Assembly: GCF_030028105.1 (NCBI RefSeq)
Contig: NC_092370.1
Coordinates: forward strand, 126,382,221 to 126,446,220
Reading direction: 5' to 3'
Source: Mobula birostris
Taxonomy: Eukaryota
DNA: 64,000 bases
Part shown: piece after piece, positions 705 through 38,430 of the stretch
How the letters are laid out: each line of letters starts with the position of its first letter
Position numbering within the stretch: the first letter of the stretch is position 1
The notes under the pieces: model-generated
The model's input: the letters and a program-made list of their open reading frames with translations, nothing else
Told to the model about the DNA's origin: nothing
Database searches by the model: none
Position numbers and translations under genes: made by a program

Positions 705-912
705 TAAGACTTCTACCATATAGTTCCAACAGTAGAGTGATGATATCCAATAACTCTGGAGAACACTACCATCTGGTGGGCATGGTTGACCAAATGACCA
801 AGTATGTTGGGCTCAGTGGATGGCATGAATATGAAAACAGGTCATCCCATGGCAAGTAACTAATTTTCTGATATTCTGGTAGAATTTCCACCAAACATAA
901 GACATGAGTCAC

Positions 913-1024
913 ACTCACAACACGCTGGAGGAACTCAGCAGGTCGGGCAGCATCCGTGGAAAAGATTGGTCGACGTTTCGGGCCGGAACCCTTCATCAGG
1001 ACTGCATCTGCAGATTATTTTGTG
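913..1024. mobile_element. Miniature inverted PLE 3'-end insertion
   Basis: Minus-strand PLE tail with hammerhead (913-1003) joined to plus-strand terminal GCATCTGCAGATTATTTTGTG; flanked by CATAAGACATGAGTCAC (896-912) and CATAAAACACAAGTCAC (1025-1041). Confidence 0.7.
969..1003 (-). ncRNA. Minimal type I hammerhead ribozyme motif (PLE-associated)
   Basis: Minus strand reads AGUC-CUGAUGA-AGGGUUCCGGCCC-GAAA-CG-UC-GAC: intact core, stem II GGG/CCC, stem I GUC/GAC. Confidence 0.8.
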
Positions 1025-1044
1025 CATAAAACACAAGTCACCGG

Positions 1045-1133
1045 AATCAGAATCAGGTTGTGTTGTGAAATTTGTTAGATTAGCAGCAGCATAAATGATA
1101 ATATAGAAAGAATAAATAAATAAATTGCAGTAA

Positions 1134-1210
<77 letters not shown>

Positions 1211-1690
1211 TAATAGATTAAAATAGTGCAAAAACAGAAGAGATATATATAAAGTGAGGTAGTGTTCATGGGTTCAACATCCATTTAGGAATCAGAAGGC
1301 AGAGGGGAAGAAGCTGTTTCTAAATCACTGAGTGTGTGCTGTCAAACTTTTGTACTTCCTGCCTGACGGTAACAATGGGAAGAGGGCATGCCCTAGGTGA
1401 TGAGGGTCCTTAATAGTTGATGTTGCCTTTCTGAGACACCGCTCCTTGAAGATGTCTTGATTACTACGGATGCCCAGTACCCATGATGGAGCGGACTAAC
1501 TTTACAACTTTCTGTAGCTTCCTTTGGTCCCGGGTCCCGTGCAGTAGCCTCCCCCCACCACCCCAATACCAGTGATGAGTGGTGCAGCCTATCAGAATGC
1601 TCTCCACAGTATATCTATAAAAGTTTTTGAGTATCTTAGGTGACAAACCATATCTCTTCAAAATCCTAATGAAATGTAGCCATTGTCTAG
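1045..1690 (-). mobile_element. Rex1/Babar-type LINE 3' fragment
   Basis: ORF 1464-1736 reads LKRYGLSPKILKNFYRYTVESILIGC...KLQKVVK; (CTGATT)n-type 3' tail near 1045. Confidence 0.75.
1135..1206. repeat. Compound (TA)n(TG)~29 microsatellite
   Basis: Directly visible. Confidence 0.97.
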
Positions 1691-1696
1691 ATGATA

Positions 1697-1790: not shown

Positions 1791-1829
1791 GCGACAACCT
1801 GGCAGTATGAACATTGCCAGTGCAGAACT

Positions 1830-2523: not shown

Positions 2524-2583
2524 CACACATAAAAGTAGCTGGTGAACGCAGCAGGCCAGAAGGCATCTATAGGAAGAGGTACA

Positions 2584-2618
2584 GATGACGTTTCGGGCCG
2601 AGACCCTTCGTCAGGACT
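2584..2618 (-). ncRNA. Minimal hammerhead motif with degraded stem I
   Basis: AGUC-CUGACGA-AGGGUCUCGGCCC-GAAA-CGUC-AUCU. Confidence 0.6.
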
Positions 2619-2829
2619 AATTGAAAGAAGAGATAGTAAGGGATTTGAAAGTGGGGGGGAGGTCCGAAATGATAGGAGAAGACAGGAGGGGGAGGGATGG
2701 AGCCAAGAGCTGGACAGTAGATTGGCAAAAGGGATATGAGAGGATCATGGGATGGGAGGCCGAGGGAGAAAGAAAGGGGGAGGGGGTAAGTCCAGAGGAT
2801 GGGCAAGGAGTATAGTGAGAGGGACAGCG

Positions 2830-2968
2830 NNNNNNNNNNNNNNNNNNNNNNNNNNNNNNNNNNNNNNNNNNNNNNNNNNNNNNNNNNNNNNNNNNNNNNN
2901 NNNNNNNNNNNNNNNNNNNNNNNNNNNNNNNNNNNNNNNNNNNNNNNNNNNNNNNNNNNNNNNNNNNN
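2830..2968. other. Assembly gap (139 N)
   Basis: Run of N inside the PLE 3' UTR. Confidence 0.99.
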
Positions 2969-5480
2969 GTATGAAGAGGAGGTGGGACATTAACGGAAGT
3001 TAGAGAAGTCAATATTCATGCCATCAGGTTGGAGGCTACCCAGCCGGAATATAAGGAGTTGTTCCTCCAACCTGAGTGTGGCTTCATCTTGACAGTGGGG
3101 GAGGCCGTGGATAGACATATCAGAATGGGAGTGGGACGTGGAATTAAAACGTGTGGCTACTGGGAGATCCTGCTTTCTCTGGTGGACAGAGCCTAGGTGT
3201 TCAGCGAAATGGTCTCCCAGCCTGTGTCTGGTCTCGCCAATATATAGAAGGCCACATCGGGAGCACCGGACGCAGTATATCACCCCAGTCGACTCACAGG
3301 TGAAGTGTCACCTCACCTGGAAGGACTGTCTGGGGCCCTGAATGGTGGTGAGGGAGGAAGTGTAAGGGCATGTGTAGCACTTGTTCCGCTTACAAGGATA
3401 AATGCCAGGAGGAAGATCGGTGGGAAGGGATGGGGGGTACGAATGGACAAGGGAGTCACGTAGGGAGCGATCCCTGCAGAAAGCAGAGGGGGGGAGGAAA
3501 AGATGTGCTTAGTGGTGGGATCCCATTGGAGATGGTGGAAGTTACGGAGAATTATATGTTGGACCTGGAGGCTGATGGGATGGTAGGTGAGGACAAGGGG
3601 AACACTGTTCCTAGTGGGGTGGCGAGAGGATGGGGTGAGAGCAGATGTGCGTGAAATGGGAGAGATGCATTTGAGTGCAGAGTTGATGGTGAAGGAAGGG
3701 AAGCCCCTTTCTTTAAAAAGGGAGGACATCTCCTTCGTCCTGGAATGAAAAGCTTCATCTTGAGAGCAGATGCGGCGGAGACAGAGGAATTGCGAGAAGG
3801 GGATGGCATTTTTGCAAGAGACAGGGTGAGAAGAGGAATAGTCCGGGTAGCTGTGAGAGTCTGTCGGCTTATAGTAGACATCAGTAGATAAGCTGTCTCC
3901 AGAGAGAGAAACAGAAAGATCAAGAAAGGGGAAGGAGGTGTCAGAAATGGACCAGGTAAACTTGAGGGCAGGATGAAATTTGGAGGCAAAGTTAATGAAG
4001 TCAACAAGCTCAGCATGCATGCAGGAAGCAGCGCCAATGCAGTCGTCGATGTAGTGAAGGAAAAATGGGGGACCGATACTAGTATAGGCTTGGAACATGG
4101 ATTGTTCCACAAAGCCAACAAAAAGGCAGGCATAGCTAGGACCCATATGGGTGCCCATGGCTACACCTTTAGTTTGGAGGAAGTGGAAGGAACCAAAGGA
4201 GAAATTATTAAGAGTAAGGATTATTTCCGCTAGCTGGAGCAGAGTGGTGGTAGAGGGGAACTGGTTAGGTCTGGAATCCAAAAAGAAGCAGAGAGCTTTG
4301 AGATCTTCCTGGTGGGGGATGGAAGTACATAAGGACTGGACATCCATGGTGAAAATAAAGCGGTGGGGGCCAGGGAACTTAAAATCATCGAAAAGTTTAA
4401 GAGCGTGAGAAGTGTCACGAACATAGGTAGGAAGGGATTGAACAAGGGGGGATAAAACAGTGTTGAGGTATGCAGAAATGAGTCAGGTGGGGCAGGAGCA
4501 AGCTGAGACAATAGGTCTGCCAGGACAGGCAGGTTTATGGATCTTGGGTAGGAGGTAGAAACGTGAAGTGCGGGGTGTGGGAACTATAAGGTTGGTAGCA
4601 GTGGATGGGAGATCCCCTGAGCGGATAAAGTTGGTGATGGTGTGGGAGACAATGGCCTGGTGCTCCTTAGTGGGGTCATGATCGGGGAGTAAATAAGAGG
4701 AGGTATCCGTGAGTTGTCACTGTGCCTCGGCAAGGTAGAGGTCAGTACGCCAGACTATAACAGCGCCCCCCTTATCGGCGGGTTTAATAGTAAGGTTAGG
4801 ATTAGTGCAGAGGGAGTGGAGAGCGGAGCGTTCGGAAGGAGTGAGGTTGGAATGGGAACAAGGTGTGGTGAAGTCGAGACGGTTGATGTCCCGTCGGCAG
4901 TTAGCAATAAAGAGATCCAGAGCAGGCAGAAGACCAGAGCGGGGTGCCCATGAAGAGGAGGATGGTTGAAGACGGGAGAAGGGGTCATCAGTGGGGGTGG
5001 GAGAGTCCTTGCTGAAGAAGTAGGCTCGAAGACGGAGCCGACAGAAGAAGAGTTCAACATCATGGCGAACGCGGTACTCGCTGAGGTGTAGGCGAAGGGG
5101 AACAAAGGTGAGGCCCTTACTGAAGACAGAGCCTCTGACAGTTGAAGGTCGGAGGGGATGGTAGAGGCCTGGCACAGATGAGAAGTGGGATCAGAGGGCG
5201 GAGGGAGAGGGAGGCTGGGGTTGTCAGTGGAGAGGGGAGGGTTGGGGTGAGAGGAAGAAGGAGCCTTCGAGGGCCCAGGAGTAGCTGATGGAATGTGAGG
5301 GAGATGGGGTTGCAGAGTGGTGGTGGGGGAAGAGGAGACGGGAGTCACAATAGCAGCATGTGAAGACCCAGCCTGGCCTTCAAGTCTGGAATCTTGAGAG
5401 CGAGGATCAGAGGGGGGAGGGGGGAGGCTGGGGGCGTCAGTGGAGAGGGGAGAGTTGGGGTGAAAGGAAGATGGAGCGTC

Positions 5481-7048
5481 TCCCAGCTATGCCTGCCTTT
5501 TGGTTGGCGTTGTGGAACAATCCCTGTTCCAAGCCTATACTGGTATCTGTCCCCCACTTTTCCTTCGCTACATTGGAGACTGCATTGGCACTGCTTCCTG
5601 CACGCATGCTGAGCTCGTCGACTTTATTAACATTGCCTCCAACTTTCACCCTGCCCTCAAGTTTACCTGGTCCATTTCCGACACCTCCATCCCCTTTCTT
5701 GATCTTTCTGTTTCTACCTCTGGAGACAGCTTATCTACTGACGTCTACTATAAGCCCACGGTCTCTCACAGCTACCTGGACTATTCCTCTTCTCACTCTC
5801 TCTCTTGCAAAAATGCCATCCCCTCCTCGCAATTCCTCCGTCTCCGTCGCATCTGCTCTCAGGATGAGGCTTTTCATTCCAGGACGAAAGAGATGTCCTT
5901 ATTTAATGAAAGGGGCTTCCCTTCCTTCACCATCAACTCTGCTCTCAAACGCTTCTCTCCTATTTCATGCACATCTGCTCTCAACCCATCCTCCCGCCAC
6001 CCCACTAGGAATAAGGTTCCCCTTGTCTTCACCAACCATCCCACCAGCCTCCGGGTCCCACATATAATTCCCCGTAACTTCCGCCACCTCCAACGGGATC
6101 CCAACACTAAGCACATCTTTCCCTCCACCCCTCTCTCTGCTTTCCGCAGGGATCGCTCCCTACGCGACTCCCTTGTCCATTCGTCCCCCCATCCATTCCC
6201 ACCAATCTCCCTCCCAGCACTTATCCTTGTAAGCAGAACAAGTGCTACACATGCCCTTATGCTTCCTCCTTCACCACCATACAGGGCCCCAGACAGTCCT
6301 TCCAGGTGAGGCAACACTTCACCTGTGAGTCGGCTGGGGTGATATACTGCATCCGGTGCTCCCGATGCAGCCTTCTATATATTGGCGAGACCCGACACAG
6401 GCTGGGAGACCGTTTCGATGAACATCTACGCTCTGTCTGCCAGAGAAAGCAGGATCTTCCAGTGGCCACACATTTTAATTCCATGTCCCATTCCCATTCT
6501 GATATGTCTATCCACGGCCTCCTCTACTGTAAAGATGAAGCCACACCTTATATTCCGTCTGGGTAGCCTCCAACCTGATGGCATGAACATTGTCTTCTCT
6601 AACACCCCACCTCCCCCTCGTAACCCACCCATCATTTATTTATTTATTTATTTATTTATTTTCTCTCCTTTTTCTCCCTCTGTCCCTCTCACTATACCCC
6701 TTGCCCATCCTCTGGGCTTCCCCCCTCCCCCTTTCTTTCTCCCTAGGCCTCCTGTCCCATGATCCTTTCCCTTCTCCAGCCTCGTATCCCATTTGCCAAT
6801 CAACTTTCCGGCTCGGCTCCATCTCTCCCCCTCCTGTCTTCTCCTATCATTTCAGATCTCCCCTTCCCCCTCCCACTTTCAAATCTCTTACTATCTCTTC
6901 TTTCAGTTAGTCCTGACGAAGGGTCTCAGCCTGAAACGTCGACTGTACCTCCTCCTATAGATGCTGCCTGGCCTGCTGTGTTCACCAGCAACTTTTATGT
7001 GTGTGGCTTGAAATTCCAGCCTCTGCAGATTTCCTCGTGTTTGCGTTT
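5481..7048 (+). mobile_element. Penelope-like retroelement (Neptune group), inverted short arm with complete 3' end
   Basis: Inverted homolog of about 2524-4140; RT C-terminal half, TYPCKQNKCYTCP linker, GIY-YIG; 14 bp TSD TTAAAATCAATATA at 2510-2523 and 7049-7062 encloses both arms. Confidence 0.95.
6909..6944 (+). ncRNA. Minimal type I hammerhead ribozyme motif
   Basis: Stem I AGUC (6909-12)/GACU (6941-44), CUGACGA 6913-19, stem II AGG/CCU, GAAA 6933-36, predicted cleavage after GUC at 6940. Confidence 0.85.
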
Positions 7049-7925
7049 TTAAAATCAATATATTGGCATTACAGTTGAATAAAAGTAACTGTAAATGTGT
7101 GAAGGAGAACTGGCCTAAATTGATTGGAAGAAGACAATAGCAGGGCTGATGGTGGAACAGCAATGGCTGGAGTTTCTGAGAGTTATTTTGAGAGTTCATC
7201 CCAAAGAAGGATTCTGAAGGGAGGATTAGGCAACAACCATGGCTAAAAAGAGAAGACAAAGAAAGCATAAAAGGGAGAGCATATGGCATAGTGAAACTTA
7301 GTAGTGAGCTGGAGGATTGGGGGATACATGGTCATGCACTTTGGTAGAAGGAATAAAGGCATAGACTGCTTTCTAAATGTGGACCAAATTTAGAAATTGC
7401 AAGTCCAAAGGGATTTAGGAGTCCTAGTGCAAGATTCTCCAAAAGTGAATTTGCAGGTTAAGTTGGAAGCAGGGAAGGCACATGCAATGTTAGCATTCAT
7501 TTCGAGAGGTCTGGAATATAAAAGTAAAGATGTAATGCTGAAATTTTGTAAGGCTTTGGTCCGACCACATTTGGAGTATTGTGAGTGGTTTTGGACTTCA
7601 TACCTAAGGAAGGATTTGCTGGCATTGGAAAGGATCTAGAAGAGGAGTACAAGAATGATCTTGGGAATGTAAGGGTTAAAATATGAAGAGTGTTTGATAC
7701 TTCTGGGCCTGTTCTGTCTGGAGTTTAGAAGAATGGCTGCAGGGGAGAGGGATCTCATTGAATCCTACTGTATATTGAAAGCCTGGGTAGAGTGAACATG
7801 GAGAGGATGTTTTAATATTGGGACTGACTAAAATCAGAGCGCATGGCTTCAGAATATATTAAAAAGTGAAATCCCCAGAGCAGATTTGATAGCCTAATTG
7901 TGATCCTATGCCTTATGGTCTTATG
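7049..7925 (+). mobile_element. CR1 LINE, continuation to 3' end (internally deleted)
   Basis: QRDLGVLV...AMLAFISRGLEYKSKDVML...LVRPHLEYC; CR1-like tail CCTTATGGTCTTATGG. Confidence 0.85.
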
Positions 7926-7934: not shown

Positions 7935-9305
7935 ACGGAATTCTTTACTTACTGGTTAACTACTTCTCCCCCCAACATTCCATCTCTTTCCTCTCTCCTC
8001 TTGATCGACCAAGTTTCTCCCACACTAACCTTAGTCCCCCACAACTCTTTTTCCTTCCCCTTCCCACCCACTTCATCTGTCCATCACTCACAAATTCCTT
8101 CCACTTGGTTACCACCCCAACTGTCTTGAGCTGCCTACCACACCTCCCTTATTTGGTTCCGTGGACCATCCTATTTGCCTTTACGTCATCTGCGGCTCTC
8201 CGTCCCCTCAACCTATCTCCTCCTGTTCTCTGTCACTATTTCCACTCTCCCCTCCTATCACCTGAACATTCCTAACTCTGTGCCCAGATTCTGCTCTAAC
8301 TCCAAGTGCAAGTTTGCAGGTGATTCCACCATAATGGACCATATCTCAAATAACAAGGGTTGGAGTAAAGGAAGGAGACTGAGAATTTAGTAACACAGTA
8401 TCATGACAACTACCTTTCCTTCAATGTCAGCAAAATAAGAGCTAGTCATTGGCTTCAGGAAAGAGGGCAGAGCACATGCTCCTGTTTACATCAATGGTGA
8501 TGAGGTTGAGAGGGTTGAAGTTCAACTTTTAGCAGTGAATATCCACATAGACATCATGAACAAGAAAGTTCACGCATGCCTCTACTTCCTCTGGAGGCTA
8601 CAGAAGTTTGGCATGACCATCAACCCTTACCAATGTTTATCGATGTACCATATGGAGCATCCTATTTGGATGCATCATGGGTTGATATGGCACGTGACCA
8701 CAGCAAACTGCAGAGGGCTATGGCCACAGATCTGCACATCACAGGAACCAGCCTCCCTTCCATGCTCTCCACTTCCCTGTACATCAGCAAAGCAGCCAGA
8801 ATAATACAGCTTCTATCCCAAAGTCATAAGACTATTAAATCATTCTCTACCACAATAAGCTTGATTCTTGGCTTCACAACCTAGCTCACAATGGTTACGC
8901 AGCTTATTGTTTACCTGCATTGCAATTTCTCAATAGCTGTTACTCTTTATTCTGCATTGTTATTGTTTTATCCTGTTCTGCCTCAATGCATTTGTAATGA
9001 GTTGATTTGTATGAACAGCATACAAGATAAGATTTTCACTGTATCATGTGACTTCAATAAAGCAATTCCAATACCATTTCCAATTTCAATTCCGTTCCCA
9101 GCTGGATCCATCTATCGCCTGCCAACTGTTGCTTCACTTCTTCCCCTTACCTCTTTATACTGTTTAGCTCGCCTCTGTTCTTCAGTCAAGATAAAGAGTC
9201 TTCATTGACGGCTCATTTCTCTTCATGGATGCTGCCTGACCTGCTGAGTTCATCCATCATCTTGTTTGTAGCTCCAGATTCCATAATCTACTAAATCTTG
9301 ATTTT
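7935..9305 (+). mobile_element. Old PLE 3' UTR/tail, interrupted by a Rex1-type LINE
   Basis: Pyrimidine-rich UTR 7935-8260 resumes at about 9095 and ends GATGCTGCCTGACCTGCTGAGTT...GCTCCAGATTCC. Confidence 0.55.
8265..9090 (+). mobile_element. Rex1/Babar-type LINE 3' fragment
   Basis: KFAGDSTI, FNVSK..ELVI, CLYFLWRLQKFGM motifs; AATAAA plus (ATTCCA)n-like tail. Confidence 0.75.
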
Positions 9306-16230: not shown

Positions 16231-16499
16231 TACTTCATTTTAACTTCTTCGTAATTCCCTGCAGAGTATTATATCCTGCATCAAAACAGAAAATACTAGA
16301 AATAATCATCTGGTCAGGCAGCATCTCTGGAGGGAGAAACAGAGTTAACATTTCAAGTCAACAAAACTTTTTTTCCCCCCAGTTCTGGAAACCATAAATA
16401 AGAAAGCAAGTTTAAAGTTGTAGAGGAACACCGAGGAACAGAGATAAGAGAACTGGAAGTATTTGATAGAGAGGGGACCAGAAGGGGACTGATTGACAC

Positions 16500-18941: not shown

Positions 18942-18977
18942 AGTCAATGTTTCAGGCCAGGACCCTTCGTCAGGACT
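18942..18977 (-). ncRNA. Hammerhead motif, CpG-decayed at the cleavage site
   Basis: AGUC-CUGACGA-AGGGUCCUGGCCU-GAAA-CAUU-GACU. Confidence 0.55.
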
Positions 18978-21100: not shown

Positions 21101-21924
21101 AGATTTTGTAGGTTCTATAGATTTTGGAATAAGATATCCGTGATGCTTAGTACAGTGTGTATGATTCTGGTCGCCTCATTATAGGAAGGATGTGGAAGCT
21201 TTGGAGAGGATGCAACAGAGATTTACCAGAATGTTCAGGATTTAAGAGCATGTGGGGAAAGGATGAGTGAGCTATGGCTTTTCTCTTTGGTGAGAAGGAT
21301 GATGAGAGGTGACTTTATCCCAAGGTGGAAATAACCAATATGAAGGGGCACAATTTTAAGGCGTTTGGATTAAAGTATTGTGGAGGTGTCAGAGGTAATT
21401 TTTTTACACAGAGAGTGGTGAGTACCCAGCTAGGTAGAGGAAGACACAATAATGGGATTTAAGAAACTCTTAGATAAGCAAAGAATAGATTGATCTGAGG
21501 GTACATTAAAAGATTGACAGAACATTGTGGGCCAAAGGGCCAGTGCTGTGCAGTATTGTTCTATACTATTTCAACGGGTAAGACAGCATTGGTGGAGGGG
21601 AATGATTTGGGTCATGACCCTTCATTTGGATTGAAAGGAAAAGGAGAAATAGCCAGTCTAAAGAGGTGAAGAGGAGAGATAGGGCAAGAGCTGGGAAGAG
21701 ATAAGAGCATCCAAGTGAGGATAGATTTATGGGTTATGGAGGGGTGGAGATACCAACAGAAACTTGGAGGTGATATGCAGGCAACCAGGTAGGTTGAGTT
21801 TGGAATAAGAGAAGGAAGGATGGTGAAGAGGAATAAAATAAGGGAGGTGAGGAGGACAGATGGGAACTGCATCTGGAAGGGACCAAGTGCAAGAAGTTTG
21901 TGGGTGTTGAGCAAACGGCGTACT

Positions 21925-23258: not shown

Positions 23259-23399
23259 GTAGGTGGAGGAGGGTAAAGGAAATGTAAGATTGGGTCTGGG
23301 GAGTTTTTGGAAGGAAAGATGTGTGTGAGAGGGCATGGATAGATCAGAAGGAGAGAAAGGGAAAGAGGGGAAGCAGATAACCTGAACCCAGGGAATCCA

Positions 23400-25805
23400 G
23401 AGCAACACACGCAAAATGCTGGAGGTACTCAGCAGGTCAGGCAGCATCTATGGAAATTAATGAACAGTCAACATTTTGAGCTGACAGCCTTCATCAGGAT
23501 TGACAAGGAAGTGGCGGGGGGAGGCGCCAGAGTAAAGAGGTGGGGGGAGGGGAAGGGGGAATAGATAGAAGGTGACAGGTGAAGCCAGGTGGATGGGAAA
23601 GAGAAAGGATTGGAAAGGAAGGAATCTGATAGGAGAGGAGAGTAGTCCATAGGAGAAGGGGAGGGAGGAAGGGACCCAAGGGGAGGTGATAGTCAGTTGA
23701 GAAGAGGTAGGAGGCCAGAGTGGGGAATAGAAGAAAAGAGGATGGGGAGGGAATTTTTTTTAGAGGAAGGAGAAATTGATATTCATGCCATTAAGTTGAA
23801 GACTACCTAGACGAAACATAAGGTGTCACTCCTCCACACTGAGGGTGGCTATGAGAGGAGGTCATGGACCAACATGTCAAAATGGGAAAGGGAATAGGAA
23901 ATAAAATGTCTGGCCACCAGGAAGTTCCACATTAGGGAGATGGGGCGGAGGTGCTCGATGAAGCACTCCCCTGATTTACGATGGGTCTCACCAATGTAGA
24001 GGCCGCTTCAGGAGCACCGAACACAATAGCCAGCCCCAGCAGATCTGCAGGGGAAGTGTTGCCCCACCTGGAAGGACTGTTTGCGGGCCCTGAATGAAGG
24101 TGAGGGAGGAGGTGAATGGGCAGGTGTAGCGCTTTGGCTGCTTGCAGGGATAAGTGCTAGGAGGGAGATCAGTGGAGAGTGATGAATTGACAACGGAATC
24201 AAGGCGGAAGCAATCCCTACAAAAAGCAGAGAGAGGTAGGAGAGGGAAAGATACGTTTGGAGGTAGGATCCCTTTGGAAATGGGAGCAGTTGCAGAGAAT
24301 GATGTGTTGGATGCGGAGGCTCATGGGGTGGTAGCTGAGGACAAGTGGAACTCTACCAGTGTTAGGGGGGCAGGAAGGTGGGGTGAGTGAAGATGTTTGG
24401 GAAGTAGAGAAGATGTGAATGAGGGCAACATCAATAGTGGAGAAAGATAAACCCTGTTTTCTGAAGAAGGACACCTCTAATGTCCTGGAAAGGAGAGCTG
24501 CATGTGGGATTAGATGTGGTGGAGACCAAGGAACTGAGAAACGGGAATACACAAATTGTTGGAGAAACTCAGCAGGTCAGGCAGCATTAATGGATAGGAA
24601 TAAACAGCTGAAGTGTTGGTCTGAAACCCTTCATCAGGACTGGAAAAAAGATGAGAAGTCTGAGAAAGAAGGTGGAGGAGGGGAGAAAGAAATACAAGGT
24701 GGTAGGTGATAGGTGTCTGGGAGGAGAGAAGGGGTGAGGTAAAGAACTGCGAAGCTGTAGGCTGGAAGAGGGGAATTTGATAGGAGAGGGTAGAAGACCA
24801 TGGAAGAAGGCGAAGTAGGAGGAAAACTGGGAGGGGAAGGGGGTGGGATGAGCAGGTAAGGAGAAAGGTGAAAGAGGGAAACAAGAATAGGGAATAGCAA
24901 AGAGGGGGCAATTACCGGAAGCTCAAGAATTCGATGTTTGTGCCTATCTGGCTGGAGTCTACTAAGATGGAATATAAGATGTTGCTCCTCCAACCTGAGT
25001 GTGGCTTCATCGCAGCAGTGGAGGAGGTCATGGGCTGACATGTCAGGATGGGAATGGGAAGTAGAGTTGAAATGGGTGCCTACTGGAAGATCCTACTTTT
25101 TCTGGTGGATGGGGCTTAGTTGCTCAGCAAAGCAGCCTCACAATCTATGTCAGTTCTCACTGGTATAGAGGTGGCCACCAGGAGCAACACCTTATATTCC
25201 ATCGGGGTAGCCTCCAACCTGATGGCAAGAACATCGATTTCTTGAACCTCTGGTTAATAACCCCCCCATCTTCACTGTTCCTCATTCTTGTTTTCCTCTC
25301 TCACACTTTCCTTACCTGCCCATCACCACTCACTAGTACTCCTCCTGCTTCCCTTTCTTCCATGGTCTTCTACCCTCTCCTATCAGATTTCCCCTTCTCC
25401 ATCCCTTTATGTCTTTCAGCAATCAACTTCCATTCTTTACTTCCCCATCCCCCTCTCTCAGTTTTACCTATCACCTTATATCTCTTCCTCCCTTACTGGT
25501 CACTGCCTTCTTACTCTGACTTCTCATCTTTTTTTTTCCAATCCTGATGAAGCCATTCAGAAGCATTGATTTCCACAGATGCTGCCTGGCCGGCTGAGTT
25601 CCTCCAGTATTGTGTATGTCTTGCCTTGGATTTCCAGCACCTGCAGATTTTCTGGTGCTTGTGAGAAAAGGCAATAGCATTTTTACAGTAAACAGGGTGG
25701 GAAGAGGTATAGTCAAGATAACCATGGGAATCAGTAGGATTATAAAAGCTGTTGGTCGAAAGTTTATCTCCAGAGTTGGAGGTAGAGAGATTGAGAAAGG
25801 GGAGG
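23400..25805 (-). mobile_element. PLE (older subfamily), 5'-truncated, interrupted by 24550-25661
   Basis: Tail at 23400 with decayed hammerhead (about 23466-23500); GIY-YIG remnant; RVPLVLSYHP...HIILCN..HFQRDP; resumes at 25662. Confidence 0.8.
24550..25661. mobile_element. Inverted two-arm PLE insertion nested in a PLE
   Basis: Minus arm about 24550-25180 and plus arm about 25181-25661 with complete end; TSD TGAGAAACGGGAATA (24535-24549) / TGAGAAAAGGCAATA (25662-25676). Confidence 0.8.
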
Positions 25806-28084
25806 GAGGGAATTCAACATTAATGCCATTGAGCTGTAGACTATCCAGATGGAATATGAGTTTCTGTTCCTCTAGTTTGCATTTAACCTCACCCTGGAAT
25901 TCAATGAGGCTAAGAAAAGACAGATCTGTGTGAGAATGACAAGGGGAATTAAAACGCCTTGTAACTGGGTGCTCTGGCAGGCCATTGTGGAAGAAGTGCA
26001 GGTGCTCAGTGCCAAGGGAAGATCTGCTTGTCATGATGAATGAAGATTTTTTATAGCTGCTAGCTTCAATGCCTCCAGTGACTCAATTCCCAGTAACAGC
26101 AGCCACCTGCAAGCTCAGGATGATCCTTGTGGACTAACCTCAGGTGTAGTAAGAACGCAAATAGCTAGTCTATGTTTGTTTTCTCCAGAGTACTATGAGC
26201 AGTGAGTGCAGCACCAATTTGCTTCACTTGGAAGGAGATGGCTCTGGTAGGTTGGGGATAAAAGAGGAAATGTCACATCTGATGCTCTTAGATCTTAGAG
26301 AGCACATTTTCACTGCTTTTTGGGTTGCTTTTCTCCCTTACTTAAATTATCTGACCTCTGCCAATGCTCCCAACCTGAAATATTCCAGAGTATCCCCTGA
26401 GGAAGACAACAAGAACTCATTATGCACAAGCTCATGGTACAGAATCTGCATCCTGACACTTCTTGACAAATGGATTTCAGAGTCGATGCATCATAAGGCA
26501 ATGTCACCTCTGTGCTAATACATCATTCAGTTCTATGGGTCAATCTTTCTGTCCTCCAAGGTTCAATTGTTTCAATCACAGCTGTAAAATAATGTTTAAT
26601 CTAAAGGTGCACTGGAGCTGTGCAGTTTTTATCGAACTCCTTTGCTAAGGTGAGGGTTGTATTTACTGTTCTCCATGTGATAATTTGACAACGCCAACCA
26701 AACACTGGAAGGACGCATAGGGAGATATCTGGGAGAAGAAATTCACCTTAGGCCACGGAGTGTTGGCCAAAGTATTCTCCATATGTAGGTATGTAGGTGG
26801 TGATAAATATCGAAGGTCTTGTTGAAATTTTGATGAGAAATGCTCTCAGGGAGGATCTAGAGGGAGGAAAGGAATTGCTCTGTCTAGACTCGATGGGCCA
26901 AATGATCTACTTCAATGTCATAAGCAAGTATTAAAGTCCCCTAGTTCAGGACATACTGCAGAGCACTACAGCCATAGAAATACTAATGAAGTTGCTATCT
27001 TAACACAGATAATACTGGGTAGTTTCTAAACAGCAAGTTCCCATAAAGACTAACTAAATTTTGATCAGACGGTTCTGTCTTTTCACTCATAGGTTAGCCC
27101 TCGATGAATAGAGGCTCATCAACAAGAAGAAAAGAAAATTCAATAGGAAAGAGCAGTAAACTGATTAAATTTAGGGAGATTCAGTTCAATTTGATGACGT
27201 ACTCTGCAAGTACAAAGTAATTTTAGAGATGTGCAATCGAACTAAGATGATAATACTTGTGTAGTTGAATCTGTGATGCATTTGCAAAGCTATTGACAAA
27301 CCGGAAGAGTGCAAGAGGGCAGGAAGGAAGGCATCTGTCCTCAGGCGACATGAACTTTGCAAGTGACCTTGCTCCCTTACTTCCAATTGGGGAACAGCAA
27401 GCCTGCTGGGAGTGCCCCCATTCCCACCCCTGCCTCTTCACCTCTCAGACAAAAGTATGCCTCTGTCTTCTTGTGTGCAATCGCAGAAAAGAGGACTGTT
27501 GGGTGTGTAAAAATGTATAGACAGAAGGTGCCTTGTTGGAACCATGAGCAGACTGCTGATCATAAATTAAAGCAGGATCTAAAGGCAGCAGATCTCCTCA
27601 GTCCAATAATCTGCCATCATTAGCGCCACAGTTTTATCACAAAGTGTACAAGTGACCCTCAGTGTACAGTGGTAAATTGCTTTACATTTTGAAATCCTCA
27701 GTGCTGCCATACCTCACATTAGATATAGTTGCCTTAATTCAGTTTGCATATCTAATGATTAATGAGAGGTATCTTTGAATTTGGACAGAACTGACTTATG
27801 AGGCCCTGGAGCACAGAAATAAAATTCAAGTGTGTACAGAATGTTAGTTTTACAATTGGCTGGTTAGTCATGCAACAGAAAATATTCTGATCAAAGTAGA
27901 TCTGAAAATATATTAACTCTCTTAGTTGCGTTGAAGTTACGCTGCAGAAATAAATCATTATGTCTATAGTGGGTCAGTGTCAGAATGGATGAATCTTGCT
28001 CATTATTTGTTATCTACCCTTATCACCACATCATTATTGTCAAGGAAGGGATTCGAATAACACCACAGTACGTACAATATATCA

Positions 28085-28709: not shown

Positions 28710-29920
28710 CGAGGAGGTTACCAAGAAAGTAGATGAAGGAAAGGCTGTGGATGTTGTCTACATGGAATTTAGTAAGGCCTTTGACAAGGTCCCACATGGG
28801 AAGTTAGTTCAGAAGTTTCAGACACTAGGTATCCATGGAAAGGTTTAAACTGGATTCGAAATTGGCTGTGTGGGAGAAGACAGAGAGTGGTAGTGGATGT
28901 TTGCTTCTCAGACTGGAGGCCTGTGACTAGTGGTGTGCCTCAGGGATCTGTGCTGGGACCATTGTTGATTGTTGTCTTTCTCAATGATCTAGATGATAAT
29001 GTGGTAAAATGAATCAGCAAGTTTACTGATGGCACTAAGATTGGAGGTGTTGTGGACAGCGAGGAAGGCTTTCAAAAGGAGGGATCTGGACCAACTGGAA
29101 AAATGGGCCAGAAAATGGCAGATGGAATTTAATGCAGACAAGTGTGAGGGTGTTGCATTTTGGAAGGACAAATCAAGATAGGACATACGCAGTAAATGGG
29201 AGGGCACTGAGGAGTGTGGAGGAACAAAGGGATCTGGGAGTTCAGGTACATAATTCCCAGAAAGTGACATCACAGGTAGACAGGGTTGTAGAGAAGGCTT
29301 TTGGCATCCTGGCATTCATAAATCAAAGCATTGAGTATAGGAGTTTGGATGTTATGGTGAGGTTGTATAAGACATTGGTGAGGCCAAATTTGGAGTATTG
29401 TGTGCAGTTCTGGTCATCTAACTATAGGAAGGATATCAGTAAGATTGAAAGAGTCCAGAGAAGATTTACTAGGATGTTACCAGGTCTTCAGGAGTTGAGT
29501 TACAGGGAAAGATTGAACAGGTTAGGACTTTATTCCTTGGAGTGTAGAAGAATGAGGGGGGATTTGATAGAGGTTTACAAAATTATGAGGGGTATAGACA
29601 GAATAAATGCAAGTAGGCTCTTTCCACTTACACTAGGAGAGATAAATATGAGAGGACATGGCTTTAGGGTGAAAAGGGAAAGGTTAGGAATATTAGGGTG
29701 AACTTCTTCACTCAGAGAGTGTTGGGAGTGTGGAACGAGCTGCCATCTGATGTGGTAAATGTGTGTTCACTCTTAAGAATAAATTGGATAGATACATGGA
29801 TGCGAGAGGTCTGGAGGGTTATGGACTGGGTGCAGGTCAATGGGACTAGCGGAATAAAGTTTCGGCACAGACTAGAAGGGCTGAATGGCCTGTTTTCTGT
29901 GCTGTAGTGTTCTATGGTTC
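28710..29920 (+). mobile_element. CR1 LINE RT-to-3' end, well preserved
   Basis: [59 protein letters not shown]; TTCTATGGTTCT tail. Confidence 0.95.
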
Positions 29921-31099: not shown

Positions 31100-32120
31100 T
31101 AACAACACTCACAAAACACTGGAGAAACCCAGAAACATCATCAGGATGAAGGGTCTTGGCCCAAAATGTTGACTGTTCATTTTCCTTCATTGATACTGCC
31201 TGGGCAGCTGAGTTCCTCTAGGTTTCCAGCATTATGCATTCTCTTTTGTGTCTACATTTCTTTGGGATGTGGGAGGGAACCAGCGCACACTGGAGAGGGC
31301 AAGAGGAGATTCACCAAGATGTTACCTGAGAAAGAACTTTTTAGTTAGTGGGAGAGACTGAAGAGGCTTGGCCCATTTTCCCTTGAGCCTGCGTGGCCTA
31401 CAACCTGATGCAATGAATATTGAGTTTTCTGATTTTAGTTAATTTCCCCTTGTCTTTCCTTTTTCCCTGTCTCCCCCGTCTCCTTCTGATCCGCCCATTT
31501 TTGCTTCACTTCCCACTGTCCCCCCATCCCCTTTCACCGGTCTTTGTTCCCAATCTCCTCAATATTTCACTAACATCACTATGCTCACCCCCAATCCCAC
31601 CACCACCAACAATTTCCACCTGGTTCCAACAATTGTCCACCCTTTCCTTCTCCTCTACTGGCTCCCATTCTCATCTTCTTTACTTACTGGAATCCAGCAC
31701 TGGTGTTCCTGTTTATCGTCCTCCAGCATCGACCTCCAGTCTCCCCTCTCCTCCTTGCTCCATCTTTTGTCTAACAGTAACACATACAAAAAATACTGGA
31801 AGAATTTAGGTTGCATCTATGGAGGGGAATAAGTAATCAGCTTTTCAGGCCAGGACCCTTCATCAAAACTGGCTCTATCTGTTTCATTTTCCTCAATCTC
31901 TTTGTCTGCCTCCACCTATCATTCTCCTGTCACAGTCTTCCTACTCTACTCCCACTCACCTCCCCAGCCTGGCTCCACCTACTTGTCATCTACACTTCTT
32001 CTCAGTGAAGCAATCTCCTCAAAGTCTTCTCTTCCCATTCTCCTTCTCCTCTCTACGCAGACCATCCTGTATCTCCACTCTCAGTCCTAAAGCAGGATTT
32101 CAGCCTGAAACGTTGACAAT
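31100..32120. mobile_element. Cluster of old PLE tail fragments in both orientations plus a SINE remnant
   Basis: Decayed hammerhead motifs at about 31143-31175 (+), 31843-31872 (-) and 32083-32118 (+); CTACAACCTGATG...ATGAATATTGAG GIY-YIG end at about 31400. Confidence 0.6.
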
Positions 32121-32175
32121 TTACAGCTTGTACAACAAGTCAAAATTTTAAAGTGATTGGAGCAAAGACTCCTGG

Positions 32176-32885
32176 CAATGTGGAGGATCAGAGGGATCTT
32201 GGGGTCCGAGTCCATAGGACGCCTAAAGCTGCTGTGCAGGTTGACTCTGTGGTTAAGAAAGCATACAGTGCATCAGCCTTCATCAATTGTGGGAATGAGT
32301 TTAGGAGCTGAGAGGTAATGTTAAAGCTATATAGGACTCTGGTCAGACCCCACTTGGAGTACTGTGCTCAGTTCTGGTATCTTCACTATAGGAAGGACGT
32401 GGAAACAATAGAAAGGGTGCAGAGGAGATTTACAAGGATCTTGCCTGGATTGAGGAGCATGCCTTATGAGAATAGGTTGAGTGAACTCAGTCTTCATTCC
32501 TCGGAGCGACAGAGGATGAGAGGTGACCTTTTAGAGGTGTACAAGATGATGAGAGGCATTGATCGTGTGGATAGTCAGAGGCTTTTTCCCAGGGCTGAAA
32601 TGGCTGGCATGAGAGGGCACAGTTTTAAAGCGCTTGGAATCAGGTACAGAGGAGATACTAGGGGTAAGTTTTTTACACAGAGAGTGGTGACTTTGTGGAA
32701 TAGGCTGCCGGCGATAGTGGTGGAGGTGGATATGATAGGGTCTTTTAAGAGACTCCTGGACAGTTATATGGAGCTCAGTAAAACAGAGGGCTATGGGACC
32801 CTAGGTAATTTCTCAGTTAAGGGCATGCTTGGCACAGCTTTGTGGGCCGAAGTGCCTGTATTGTGCTGTAGGTTCTCTATGTTTT
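32176..32885 (+). mobile_element. CR1 LINE 3' fragment
   Basis: MLKLYRTLVRPHLEYCAQFW...GDLLEVYKMMRGIDRVDSQRLFP...FFTQRVV. Confidence 0.93.
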
Positions 32886-34179
32886 TATTGAAAGGATATC
32901 AGAAACAAGAGAGGGTCTGTTGTTTCTGTCCCGATAATAGCTCTTGGCTCGAAATATCAATGTTAACACTTTTCCATAAATGCTGCCTGGCCTGCTTAGG
33001 TGCCTTCAGCATTTTGTGTGCGTCACTGAGGGGATATCAGAGGTACTTTGGAACAATACACCATCAGCCAGGACAATCTGTACCGTATTTCAGAGCTGAA
33101 GTCTCTACATCATCACTTAACCACATGGCACTCCATCTGTGAAATTCATTTCACTGACTCGCAGTGAAATCCAGTCTCAGGTAAGTCCCAATCTTCATTG
33201 GAGAAAGAAGTAAAAGGTCTCAGTCTCAAATCTCCGTTTGCTGAGTTCACACAGTATCTGCCAATACATCATATCTGAACTGCCATTTTAACCCAGGGTC
33301 TGATTACTGGTGAAATCTATAGGAGGAAACCTAGTGGAAGTGCAGCAGGAGCCTAGAGAGCTGAATGTCGTATTACATCCAATGGGTACTGCCAACTTTC
33401 CATCCCAAACCACCTCATGAAGTTACCTTGATCCAGGACAACACCTATTTACATTTGGAATCTTCTTCAGCGCAGTGTCCCTCCAAATCTTACCTCCTGA
33501 TAATACGTTTAATGACACCACTAGTTTATCTTCAACTCCTTTTTAAATCTTTTCTCTCTCACCTTATCATCTATCCCTATAAAACTATCAGTGACAGTCT
33601 TCAATCAATTGGCCTATTCATAATATTTAATATTTAAAGTCTTTTCATAATATTTAAACCTTACAACACAGAGCTTTTCTTATTTGCTATTGATCTTGTG
33701 GATGCTATTACTACATTGAAAATAACTCCCCATTGCATATCCTGATGCGTTTAGCTGTGGTGGTTGTGCTGCGCTAATATTATCAGTTACAGGATATATG
33801 AGCATCAATCTAGAATGTTTTTCCTCACCCCATGATGTAATGATGCTACTATGACCTCTGACCATGTGACTACTTTATATAACCAAATGCAGATACACCA
33901 CACTCCCCATGAAAGGAAGTTATTGCTGCTCCATCTCCGTTCATTATTGCTCCTACTTGCCTCGCTGACAGGGATTACAGCAACATCTGGAAAGAATTCA
34001 ATCCTAAACATGTAAATGCAAATGAATTAAAATCTGAGCTTTGTTGCTTGACATGTCTCCACAACCCAACACTCCTTTCATATTGCTCCCATCATGAATT
34101 CAGAATGACAGCCGAATTTTTGCCACAGTCTTGTAGGAAAAATTAATGAATTTTGGCAGTTTTATTTTTCCAGGAGAAT

Positions 34180-35320
34180 TGGTAAAAATATGGCAGATGG
34201 AATACGCTGTTGTGAAGTGTGCAGTCATGCACTTTGGTAGAAGAAATAAAGGTGCAGACTATTTTTCTAAATGGAGAGAAAATTCAAAAATCCAAGATAC
34301 AAAGGGACTCATGCAGAATTCCTTAAAGGTTAATTTGCAGGTTGAGTCAGTGGTGAGCAAGGCAAACGTATGTTAGCATTCATTTTGAGAGGACGAGAAT
34401 ATAAAAGTAGCAATGTAATGTTGAGGCTTAATAAGGCACTGGTAAGGTCTCACTTAGAATAATATGAGCAGTTTTGGACCCCTTATCTAAGAAAGTGGAT
34501 AGTGTGGTAGGATGTCTCTACTAAAAGAGGTGTAAGATGTTCCTTTCCTCTGCTAGCCTGCAAGTTATCCTTGGGCAAGGTATAGCACCTGCTTAACCCC
34601 GTGATCAGGGTCACATTAAGCCATGGGATCAGGTGATGGATGGTCATGTGAGAAGCTAGTCTTGGTTATGCGAGCACTGACACCAGGCAGACAATCTCTG
34701 AAGAGTAGTGCTAATGGCTGGGGTCATCGTTTTTGTAAAGACACTGCTCTGAAGAAGACAAGAGTAAACCACTTCTGTAGAAAATTTTGCCAAGAACAAT
34801 CATGGTCAGAGAAAGACCACGATTACCCACATCATAGAGCATGTCACAAAATGATGGTGATGATATTTAAGAAAGGATGTGCTGACATTGGAGAGAGTTC
34901 AAAAGAGGTTCACGCAAATGATTCCAGGAATGAAAGGGATACCATGTGTGTAGCGATTGGTGGCTCTTGGCATGCACTCAGAAGAATGAGGGAAGATCTC
35001 ATTGAAACCTATTGAATATTGAAAGGCCTTGATGGATAGATGTTAAGAGGATGTTTCCTATGGTGGGGGAGTCCGAATAGAGATACATCCATTTAGAATG
35101 GAGATGAGGAGGAATTTCTTTAGCTGGAGAGTGGTGAATCTGTGGAATGCGCAGCCACAGGCATTGAGTATATTTAAGGTGGAGGTTGATAGATTCTTGA
35201 GGGGTTACAGGGAGAAGGTGGGAAATTGGGGCTGAGAGGGAAATGGATCAGCTGTGATTAATTGGCAGAGAACACTCGATGGGCCAGATGGCCTAATTCT
35301 ACTTCTATGTCTCATGGTCT
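34180..35320 (+). mobile_element. CR1 LINE 3' fragment interrupted by an RTE-type SINE
   Basis: WQMEY...KCAVMHFGRRNKG; the reading PYLRK|DVLTLERVQ is split by the insertion. Confidence 0.8.
34496..34863 (+). mobile_element. Non-autonomous bipartite RTE-derived short retroposon (Bov-A-like architecture)
   Basis: TSD TATCTAAGAAAG (34484-95) / TATTTAAGAAAG (34864-75); RTE 5'-UTR-like motif GTAAACCACTTCTGTA...TTGCCAAGAA; RTE-like 3' end and (ATG)n tail. Confidence 0.75.
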
Positions 35321-35844
35321 TATTTTAGGCTTGAATTTGAGCTTTCCTCCTTGATGATGAAATCATTCATTTAATATGCAATTAATATGGAAACCTTATT
35401 CTCAGGGAGCTAGTGGTTTGAGTGGACCAAATCAAATCAAAAACATTTATTCTTTAAACTGAAAATGAGTTATTGAATAAAACAAGCCTTGTAGTGGACC
35501 TTTATCTGATTTGGATTAAAGCCAACAGAACAATGATATAGTCAATAAACAAAGTACTAATGGGAGAAATTTTGTCTTTTCACCAACTATTTATGGGAAA
35601 AATGAAAATATTGGATAAGAAGTGGGTGACATAGCATGTCACCTTAACAAAGGTTGATAAAACTGATCACTATTTATGAAGCATGTATTTGATGAAAGTG
35701 ATTTAGAGAGCTAAACACTATTCATGGAGAGGTTGAGGAGTCTACCCTTTCCATGATACATTTGAACTGCAATAGAATAAATGCTGTTTAATGGTTTAAT
35801 TGTGTTTGTTAATGAAGAAGCTTAATGCTGATCAGCATCATCAG

Positions 35845-36160
35845 AGGTGGCACTCTTGGCCAATATATACCTCTCAACCAACATTCGCAAAACACAAGAA
35901 GTGGGAAATTCATTCTCATTTGAAATAAATTTCTGAGGTAATGGCATTACACGTGATACAACTATCAAAATATTTAATATGGCTGACTGCAGAATGATTT
36001 TTTTCAATCATACACTATAGACTTTACATTGCTACTTATGGGAGCTTGCTGCATACAAATTCCTCCTTTCCTGCTTCCTGCCTTTACTTTTCTTTTTGGG
36101 AAGAATTTATTGTATGTCATATACAGTGTTACTGACAACTTCCTAACACTGAAACAGTGA
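35845..36160 (+). mobile_element. Highly degenerate Deu-type (SacSINE1-like) SINE remnant
   Basis: CTTGGCCAATATATACCTCTCAACCAACAT and ATTGCT...TGGGAGCTTGCTGCATACAAAT blocks resemble the Deu-SINE body as I recall it. Confidence 0.4.
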
Positions 36161-36434
36161 TCTTTGTCTTTGGCTGAGTTTGTGCATAAGATCTGATGCG
36201 TGTATTATAAATATTCATAAATTCTGGGAAAATTCCAAATACATTTAACATCAGAGGCTCTCAATCTTTCATGTTGTAGCCTGCTTCAGAGGAAACCAAG
36301 TAATCATCATTTTAATCATAAACACTAAAAGTTATTGCTTTTATAATTGCATCCCTCTTCTAAATCTAACTTGGATTCAAATTTGCCTTGGACATAGAAG
36401 ACCTAGAGAGATATTATTCAAACTGGAGATCAAT

Positions 36435-36835
36435 GAGCAATGGTGTTCCACAGAGATCAGAGCTGGAAGTTCTGTTTTTTTGCAACATATATAAATGATT
36501 TGCATGAAAATGTAGATAGGCAGATGAGTAAGTTGCACATTATGCAAAAAAAATGGCAGAGTGTGGATGGTGTGGATGATGTGGAAGGTTGTCAAAAGAT
36601 TCAGCATGATAAAGATTTCTTGTAAATGTGGGCAGAAAAATGGCAGATGGAGTTTAATTCAGACTAGTGCAAGTTGTGGTACTTTAAGAGACTGAATGTA
36701 AGAAGAAAGTATATCATAAGTGGCAGGTCTCTTCAGGGCATTGATGTACAGAGGAATCTTAGGGTGCATTTCCAAAGCACACTGAAAGTGGCATCACAAG
36801 TAGATAGAATTGTAAAGAAAGCTTGCAGCTTGCCT
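36435..36835 (+). mobile_element. CR1 LINE RT fragment
   Basis: YINDLHEN, WAEKWQMEFN, QRNLRVH motifs. Confidence 0.75.
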
Positions 36836-36837
36836 TC

Positions 36838-38430
36838 ACTGGACTTCATTAAAACAGTTGTAGATGAGGTTGTCCCACAAAATTACTCAGAGTCTTTCCC
36901 AACCAGAAGCCCTGCATGTACCATAAGATCTGCAATCTGCTGAAGGCCAGATCAGAGGCATTCAAGTCTTGTGATCAAGAAAGGTACAACAGGTCCAGGT
37001 ACAATCTCCAGAAAGCTATCTCATGGGTGAAGTGGCAATTCCAGACCAAACTTCAATCAACAAAGGATGCTTGACAGTTGTGGCAGGGCTTGAATGCTAC
37101 CTCCTCTTATACAGTTAAATCAAGTGACATAGGTGACAACAGGACTTTATTTCCAAATGAACTCAATGCCTTCCATGCTTGCTTTGGAGGAACATGGAGG
37201 AACCATCATGAACACCCACAGCCCCAGATAATCTTGTGATTTCAGTCTCTGAGGGTGACGTGCAAGCTGTCTTCAAGAGAATGATCCCATGAACAGTATC
37301 TGGCACAGATGGGGTACCTGGTCAAGTATGAAAGACCTGTGCTGATCAGCCGGCTGGTGTGTTCACTGAGAAGTTTAACCTTTTGCTTTGGCAATCTGAG
37401 GTACCCACCAGACTTCACTTATACCACTGCGCCTAAGAAGAACATGGTAAACTGCCTCAATGACTACTATGCATTTCTATTTACATCCACTGTGATAAAG
37501 TGTTTTGAGAGGCTGGTACTGAAACTATCAATTCCTCCCGAATGGACTTGGATTTGCTCCAATTTGACTACCGACACAACAGGTCCACAGCAGATGCCTT
37601 CTCATTGGCTCTTCACTAAACCCTGGAACATTTGGACAGCAAAGATGCATACATCAGGATGCTCTTCATTGACTACAGCTCAGCATTCAATAACATCATC
37701 CCCTCAAAACTAATCAATAAGCTTCAAGTCGTTGGTCTCAATACCTCTGTGAGCAACTAGATCCTCAGTTTCCTGCAGACTCCAGTCAGTTCGGATTGTC
37801 AACAACATCTCCTCCTCCACAATCTTGAGGTGCACTGCCAGGATCTGTGCTTAGCCCCACTTATGACTGTGTGGCTAAGCACAGCTCCAATTCCATATTC
37901 AAGTTTACTGACAACACCACCATTGTAGGCTGAATCAAAGGTGGTGCCAAATCAGCATATAGGAGGGAGATTGAAAATCCGACTCAGTGGTACTACAACA
38001 ACAACCTCTTACTCAATGTCAGCAACACCAATGAGTTGTTTTTTGACTTCAGGAGGACGAAACCAGTGGTCCATGAGCAAGCAACACACATAAAAGTTGC
38101 TGGTGAATGCAGCAGGCCAGGTAGCACCTCTTCCTAGAGATGCTGCCTGGCCTGCTGCGTTCACCAGCAACTTTTATGTGTGTTGTTTGAATTTCCAGCA
38201 TCTGCAGAATTCCTGTTTGCGTTTAAGGTCCATGAGCAAGTCCTCATTAGAGGGTCAGAATTGGAAAGAGTCAGCAATTTTAAAATCCCTGGTGTTATCA
38301 TTTCAGAGGACCTGTCCTGGTCCCAGCACTTAAGTGCAATTATGAAGAAAGCACAGGAGTGCCTCTACTTCCTTAAGAGCTTGTAAAGATTTGGCATTAC
38401 ATCTAAAACTTTGACAGACTTCTACAGATG
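36838..38430 (+). mobile_element. Rex1/Babar LINE, RT region, degenerate
   Basis: CLNDYY...[65 protein letters not shown]. Confidence 0.9.
38082..38226. mobile_element. 145 bp inverted PLE-tail insertion forming a 45 bp hairpin
   Basis: Arms 38082-38126 and 38141-38185; perfect 14 bp TSD GGTCCATGAGCAAG at 38068-38081 and 38227-38240. Confidence 0.92.

Follow-up and report, generated by a model that had tools for sequence, protein, structure and literature searches.

Inverted two-armed insertions of a Penelope-like element in Mobula birostris point to reverse transcription primed from both ends of one cut

The five insertions and their target-site duplications

A 64-kb window of the Mobula birostris genome (NC_092370.1) contains five insertions, here i1 to i5, of a Penelope-like element (PLE), each bounded by a target-site duplication (TSD). 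They were located by comparison of the window with itself and by direct reading. The arm that starts at the outer site of the element is called here the tail arm, and the one that starts at the inner site the tail-less arm. In four insertions two element 3' ends face outward in inverted orientation, and in the fifth (i3) the second end is a vestige of 3 nt. The TSDs measured 13-17 bp, three of them being perfect, and each was significant against 1498 random junction pairs (p = 0.0007-0.0013). The insertions, their inverted ends and their TSDs had been proposed by a first-pass annotation of the window, and its placement was upheld by these tests and by two reconstructed empty sites. In addition, a single TSD surrounds both arms and none surrounds one arm, as that annotation had required; this layout was found in four of the five loci, in i3 with its vestigial second arm, and also in two of four extra pairs described below.

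Insertion i1 lies between TSD copies at 896-912 and 1025-1041 (17 bp with 3 mismatches, p 0.0013); all the mismatches are transitions and two of the three fit the decay of one CpG. Its tail-less arm (913-1003, minus strand) begins at the inner start and carries a minimal hammerhead core at 999-973. Its tail arm (1004-1024, plus strand) consists solely of the tail's distal 21 nt, which match the tail of i3 at 18 of 21 positions (p 0.0006), and does not overlap the other arm. Insertion i2 is flanked by a perfect 14-bp TSD (2510-2523 and 7049-7062). Its tail-less arm (2524-5477, minus strand, 2.95 kb) contains a broken open reading frame (ORF), the 3' untranslated region (UTR) with a gap of Ns at 2830-2968, and a hammerhead (2614-2588); a DKG motif falls within 4717-5190, the reverse transcriptase (RT) spans 3313-4482 and the endonuclease extends to about 3000. 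The low-complexity 5' part of this arm shows a 77-bp direct repeat (88%; 5188-5264 and 5404-5477), and the arm stops at the end of the second copy. The tail arm (5481-7048, plus strand, 1.57 kb) includes the C-terminal half of the RT, the linker, the GIY-YIG domain and the 3' UTR, with the hammerhead at 6913-6939 and the tail at approximately 7007-7048.

The perfect 13-bp TSD of i3 (18829-18841 and 19877-19889) encloses a tail arm of 1.03 kb (18842-19873, minus strand), with the endonuclease region, a gap of Ns (19205-19337), the 3' UTR and the tail, and the vestigial inner arm (19874-19876, plus strand), which is a post hoc reading. The 8 nt of TSD that follow the vestige match the continuation of the element; the 11-nt match previously reported at this junction is present, being composed of 3 nt of arm and these 8 nt. 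Insertion i4 has a 15-bp TSD with 2 mismatches (24535-24549 and 25662-25676), the left copy of which falls in the stretch of an older PLE that encodes the RT thumb; its tail-less arm (24550-25186, minus strand, 637 nt) and its tail arm (25180-25661, plus strand, 482 nt) overlap by 7 nt at the centre. Finally, i5 has a perfect 14-bp TSD (38068-38081 and 38227-38240) around a tail-less arm of 45 nt (38082-38126, minus strand) and a tail arm of 100 nt (38126-38226, plus strand). Inspection of the TSDs by eye revealed no target consensus. That the arms repeat the same 3' sequence, as had been claimed, is true of i2 (about 1.5 kb), i4 and i5; it does not apply to i1, in which they do not overlap, nor to i3, with its second arm of 3 nt.

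Empty sites could be rebuilt for two of the five insertions (i4 and i5) from paralogues in the window. The host of i5 is a repeat, and the flanks of this insertion overlap by 14 bp on two uninterrupted paralogues (59684-60388 and 61100-61300); for i4, the two flanks align to a PLE ORF that is uninterrupted, with an overlap of 14-15 bp. The family hosting i5 also forms tandem 0.9-kb copies (59070-59959 and 60392-61273, 73%), which served as empty-site references. When 14 flanks of other loci were searched within the window, no paralogue was found across any junction. Assembly gaps affect one arm each of i2 and i3, and the scaffolding across them is supported because the TSDs match across the gaps. 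Both gaps fall where the ORF ends and the 3' UTR begins; at this place the arm without a gap carries a run of (TTTA)n, near 6635-6660.

The region 23320-25990 is a three-level PLE nest in which i4 occupies an older antisense copy (23372-25807), which in turn seems to be inserted into a third, even older copy at the junction of ORF end and 3' UTR. This junction, between ORF and pseudo-long terminal repeat (pLTR), is the site cleaved in vitro by the anole element itself (PMC11167929).

Domains and classification of the element

The RT gave an RVT_1 match with an E value of 1e-3, under the curated cut-off, and a homologue search retrieved 533 homologues, many annotated as RT and some as GIY-YIG; no named clade references appeared among the 120 listed of those 533. 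The PLE-type DKG motif is present as ADKGG in the reading frame 4717-5190 of the tail-less arm of i2. The GIY-YIG endonuclease is C-terminal (E 2e-4, 22.1 bits against a cut-off of 22.6) and has a CCHH arrangement, VIYCIRCSRCSLLYIG followed by two His, with the cysteines between GIY and YIG. The linker between RT and endonuclease has the form CX4CxxC (CKQNKCYTC). According to an extract of PMC8557442, a CX2-5CxxC linker defines the Neptune and Nematis clades; by the definitions given there the element is, as predicted from its sequence, an endonuclease-bearing (EN+) PLE with a Neptune/Nematis-type linker.

A pattern search identified the minimal hammerhead core, with a palindromic helix III, at three places (999-973, 2614-2588 and 6913-6939), on the sense strand and about 65-70 nt upstream of the inner start. 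It agrees with the minimal hammerhead described in PMC4209133. A scan of the window with Rfam yielded three weak matches and neither a hammerhead nor any other relevant family. As a predicted motif, this hammerhead in the terminal repeat is nevertheless what an EN+ PLE should carry. Together with it were found the other features of that group: a DKG-type RT, a GIY-YIG domain with CCHH, and a tail at one end plus an inversion inside the TSD. Regarding an upstream direct pLTR, no direct terminal match was observed upstream in the longest arm, and all copies in the window are 5'-truncated.

Start sites, tail and microhomology

Measured from CTTGAA to GTTTG, the tail has a length of 37 nt. Exactly one end bears it in all eight inverted pairs with both ends visible, a pattern whose probability under independent site choice is at most 0.004. 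This strict use of one site of each kind implies that the two starts are coupled. The inner starts of i1-i5 are spread over about 9 nt and lie 36-44 nt upstream of GTTTG; the second arm thus begins well inside the terminus, as had been claimed (about 30-45 nt), in a narrow window rather than at one fixed position. The full terminus attributed to the other arm was confirmed for i2-i5, whose outer ends vary over 7 nt after GTTTG, whereas i1 stops just short of it. A spread of this kind is easier to reconcile with a start window inside the RNA than with a fixed RNA end. Considering also the internal initiation described in PMC11167929, both start sites, the outer one included, are probably internal to the RNA, contrary to the earlier proposal of an RNA 3' end at the outer start. 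Both sites are AC-rich on the antisense (cDNA) strand, as seen at 913-920, 2524-2535, 18842-18895 and 38082-38095.

Microhomology between target and RNA at the inner ends of i1-i5 amounted to 2, 1, 8, 1-3 and 4 nt, respectively, and at the five outer ends to 0, 0, 0, 1 and 1 nt (p 0.46). Since the second arm of i3 was recognised through its match, i3 was left out of the sum, which for the remaining inner ends was 10 (p 0.0002) or 8 (p 0.0015). Two previously reported values had to be adjusted: at i1 the microhomology is 2 nt and not the 3 of CAC, and at i5 the CAAG holds against the family base but not against the partner arm, which has T there.

Central junctions and divergence between arms

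The two arms meet differently at every locus in the window: the overlap at the centre is 0 nt in i1, 1 nt in i5 and 7 nt in i4, and i2 has 3 unassigned nt. The longest perfect hairpin stem near the centre was of 3-6 bp at the eight centres examined. The tail-less arm reaches further 5' in five loci (i1, i2, i4, x329 and x525) and the tail arm in four (i3, i5, x311 and x560; the x loci are described in the next section), and the idea that the tail arm is always shorter was rejected on this count.

The arms of i2 differ at 62 of 1023 non-CpG sites, which fits its perfect 14-bp TSD (P 0.42). At 52 of 116 informative sites they have a variant in common that sets them apart from i3, above the star-tree expectation (p 0.007). 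Those of i5 differ at 2 of 45 sites. Over the same span, the two arms of i4 resemble one another more than they resemble i2 or the host copy.

Additional pairs and unpaired termini

A profile of the terminal region gave 25 matches at E values up to 1, against 1 in a reversed control, and a second round gave 28 against 0. Nine of the 25 correspond to the five insertions; the rest include four more inverted pairs (x311, x329, x525 and x560), the pair at 31779-32117 and unpaired termini. The TSDs of the extra loci were evaluated with junctions picked by eye and scanned ±8 nt, the 99th percentile of the null being 8.0. With such junctions, three of nine candidates were backed (x329, x525 and x399, which scored 10, 9 and 8) and six failed, so that a TSD is supported for two of the four pairs, x329 and x525.

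Locus x329 (32889-33041) shows the same geometry, with a 15-bp TSD carrying 2 mismatches (32889-32903 and 33027-33041, eye-picked junctions); its tail arm (about 32904-32919, minus strand, p 0.003-0.005) consists of tail only, 16-19 nt, and does not overlap the inner arm (about 32921-33026, plus strand). Locus x525 (52517-52683) belongs to an older subfamily and has a 9-bp AT-rich TSD, with the inner arm at about 52530-52618 (minus strand) and the tail arm at 52627-52674 (plus strand). No TSD was detected at x311 (31101-31252; inner arm of 31 nt on the minus strand, tail arm with an internal deletion on the plus strand; p 0.73), nor by the same test at x560 (55993-56167; tail arm on the minus and inner arm on the plus strand; p 0.31). 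The fifth extra locus, x399 (39957-40063), is a lone tail-less arm in an 8-bp direct repeat, with no tail arm seen.

The pair at 31779-32117 has a tail-less arm on the minus strand and a sense arm that reaches the hammerhead, its right end being lost beside a fragment of a long interspersed nuclear element (LINE). Old PLE termini for which neither a partner nor a TSD was detected lie at 9172-9300, 16258-16363, 21560-21649, 52307-52380, 56491-56602 and 62004-62097. An open-ended TSD search on nine further termini found none at eight and a low-complexity candidate at one.

Other repeats were also observed. Three C-terminal LINE ORF2 fragments (29039-29701, 32312-33142 and 42328-43056), without a Pfam match, are presumably CR1-like. 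A tRNA-like head at 49617-49688 (27.9 bits in Rfam, under the cut-off), with relatives near 20928-21028 and 58533-58751, is probably a tRNA-derived short interspersed nuclear element; ARAGORN predicted no genes in the window.

Probable priming from both ends of one cut

Taking the junctions together with the biochemistry of a related element, we consider that these insertions were made by target-primed reverse transcription (TPRT) from both ends of one cut, with a probability of roughly three in four. TPRT leaves an arm whose element 3' end lies at a TSD boundary, and both 3' overhangs would have served as primers because two such arms lie within one TSD. This part of the earlier proposal gives the best fit to the junctions and is backed by PMC11167929; the stagger of roughly 14 nt is derived from TSD length only. 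We infer the individual steps from the junctions or carry them over from that related element. As the TSDs suggest, the GIY-YIG domain would nick both strands 13-17 nt apart, leaving 3' overhangs. One 3'-OH would then prime cDNA synthesis, with no base-pairing, from the outer RNA site (about 105 nt downstream of the hammerhead), as anole Poseidon does in vitro, and give the tail arm. According to the junctions, the other 3'-OH would begin about 40 nt further upstream, at the inner site, in most cases with the aid of 1-8 nt of pairing, and give the tail-less arm. Each cDNA would be truncated independently, the two would be joined head to head with an overlap of 0-7 nt, and fill-in would leave a single TSD round both arms.

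Concerning the template, the first-pass annotation had called for two RNA 3' ends. They are not needed, as the arms of i1 and x329 are non-overlapping, exactly like those of twin priming, and the strict pairing of tail with no tail follows just as readily from one RNA with two RTs. We favour a single RNA on which two RTs work about 40 nt apart, at somewhat less than even odds. The trailing RT would either stall within the tail, after 21 nt in i1 and 16-19 nt in x329, or displace the leading cDNA and recopy the RNA; strand displacement is a property of non-LTR RTs. Two RNAs on an asymmetric dimer are a little less probable; this version shares the overall probability given above with the one-RNA version and with a possible variant in which the two starts lie on two pLTRs of one tandem transcript. 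The simplest coupling would be one RNA that presents both sites to a dimer, the outer used without pairing and the inner with short pairing. A more specific proposal, slightly more doubtful than the one-RNA template itself, is that a PLE dimer loads both cut ends on one RNA, tandem RTs copy this RNA twice, with the leading cDNA displaced by the trailing RT, the tail reflects the spacing of the active sites, and the inverted double-ended insertion is the normal PLE route.

Several observations weigh against priming from both ends. The sample is a single 64-kb window and the numbers are small. The arms of i4 differ at 120 of 413 sites (29%) against 2 of 15 mismatches in its TSD; both values are compatible (P 0.14), but arms so decayed give no support for identical templates. 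The two-armed layout is not universal either: x399 has the inner arm only, the copy at 23372-25807 appears to have the tail arm only, with a tentative 20-bp low-complexity duplication, and several of the 25 terminal matches lack a partner or TSD. If the most cautious references are used, only 4 nt of microhomology remain at the inner ends of four loci together (p 0.09), and none of eight terminal-region sequences folded better than their shuffles as RNA (z -1.3 to 0.8). Finally, the sense RNA is U/G-rich at both sites here and AC-rich in PMC11167929, where initiation took place at a site that shares no homology with the cleaved DNA.

Alternative explanations

Among the alternatives, each of them improbable, the one that survives best is single-ended TPRT of a read-through transcript from an already inverted source, in which the tail-less end would be the 5' junction and would owe its microhomology to this. 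One-ended microhomology is typical of LINE 5' junctions. Such a junction was noted for Pen2 in an extract of PMC3846280, and active copies with flanking inverted repeats appear for Drosophila virilis in one of PMC2377424; diverged arms, as in i4, would also be permitted. However, a ready-made inverted source is disfavoured because no central junction recurs in the window. It moreover offers no reason for 5' truncation within one 9-nt window or for the 3-nt arm of i3, and only pushes the origin of the inversion one step back.

Only marginally less probable is that both arms start alike and the endonuclease trims the tail off one end at resolution, as suggested in an extract of PMC8557442. Trimming likewise predicts exactly one tail per insertion; nevertheless, direct mapping of RT starts in PMC11167929 places them at both boundaries of the tail, and the second arm of i3, 3 nt followed by an 8-nt target-RNA match, looks like priming.

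Still less credit can be given to fold-back or self-priming, in which one cDNA or antisense template loops back and copies itself into an inverted arm. This is the explanation given for head-to-head Penelope structures in an extract of PMC3846280, which includes palindromes at inverted junctions of rotifer elements, and i5 is indeed a near-symmetric 112-bp palindrome. Fold-back from the tail arm requires, however, that the tail-less arm be contained within it, and this is excluded at five of nine loci (i1, i2, i4, x329 and x525) because there the tail-less arm is the longer, in i2 by 2.95 kb to 1.57 kb. Fold-back from the tail-less arm could not provide the tail, and the longest perfect stems at the eight centres examined measure 3-6 bp.

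Two successive insertions at one spot, the second homing to the 5' end of the first, are equally improbable: PLEs do lie within one another here (the host copy of i4 is older and has a PLE host older still), PMC11167929 reports cleavage at the element's own ORF-pLTR junction and the arms of i4 are 29% apart, but the single TSD around both arms, with none round one, and the fixed polarity (always outward, one tail in eight of eight) disfavour it, as do arms that meet at arbitrary ORF/UTR positions and belong to the same subfamily in i2 and in i5.

Relation to known systems

The insertions were compared with described systems. Their geometry is not new and had already been published as inverted pLTRs plus a tail. 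The extract of PMC3846280 describes inverted pLTRs, one of which bears a 31-bp tail, enclosed by a TSD of 8-10 bp, and that of PMC8557442 gives the same layout as general, with a tail of 30-40 bp often at one end that is ascribed to endonuclease resolution. A 34-37 bp repeat with flanking inverted repeats in D. virilis is contained in the extract of PMC2377424. The PLE cycle, including the formation of inverted ends, was called undefined in 2021 (PMC8557442, same extract); those of PMC8969392 and PMC12910113 add nothing on mechanism. The element shares with canonical EN+ PLEs the outward inverted ends in one TSD, the 30-40 nt extension at one end, the RT with C-terminal GIY-YIG and the minimal hammerhead near the end. 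It differs in its TSD (13-17 bp against 8-10 bp in rotifers), in its centres, which are not palindromes, and in that no direct upstream pLTR was seen in these truncated copies.

The nearest biochemical parallel is Poseidon of Anolis carolinensis (PMC11167929, 2024), in which internal initiation was found in vitro at two sites bounding the tail, both DNA strands were cut and extended, either site was used on either strand and a dimer was predicted; the steps after first priming were left unvalidated. Two internal RT starts that bound a tail downstream of the hammerhead, and the cutting and extension of both strands, are common to both elements. The linker type (CX4CxxC here), the base composition of the start sites and the short microhomology at the inner site are different. 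In the main text of PMC11167929 no connection is drawn between the two sites and the opposite ends of a single insertion, nor between these sites and inverted arms.

L1 twin priming, as defined in an extract of PMC2837659, also has both DNA ends priming, inverted arms in one TSD and a second primer that pairs internally. Its non-overlapping arms with an internal deletion are seen in i1 and x329 but not in i2, i4 and i5. Here, in contrast, the second site is within about 9 nt, the arms often overlap, by up to 1.5 kb, there is no poly(A) and the two-armed form appears to be the common outcome. Dual priming on two mRNAs, postulated and not validated in the same extract, is in essence the model of the first-pass annotation: two cDNAs are primed from two nicks and overlapping arms are possible. 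Both mRNAs prime at poly(A) there, whereas the starts are offset by 36-44 nt in every pair here.

Implications

The inverted two-ended structure is thus already known, and the both-ends model is only a short step from the biochemistry reported in 2024 (PMC11167929). The literature search, which left older Penelope papers outside, found neither a stated both-ends model of PLE inversion nor a statement that the two PLE sites serve one per insertion end. Likewise not found in print were the strict pairing of one tail with one tail-less end, microhomology restricted to the tail-less end, and arm lengths incompatible with fold-back. What the window adds is evidence per insertion: the pairing in eight of eight, the one-sided microhomology and the exclusion of fold-back.

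Should every insertion combine an outer start on one cut end with an inner start on the other, the tail, the inversion and the TSD would be the products of one mechanism, and the earlier readings by self-priming and by endonuclease trimming would fall. Priming from both ends, merely postulated for L1, would then gain abundant natural examples, and a high-copy ray family such as this one, with 25 terminal matches in 64 kb, makes the model testable by computation alone.

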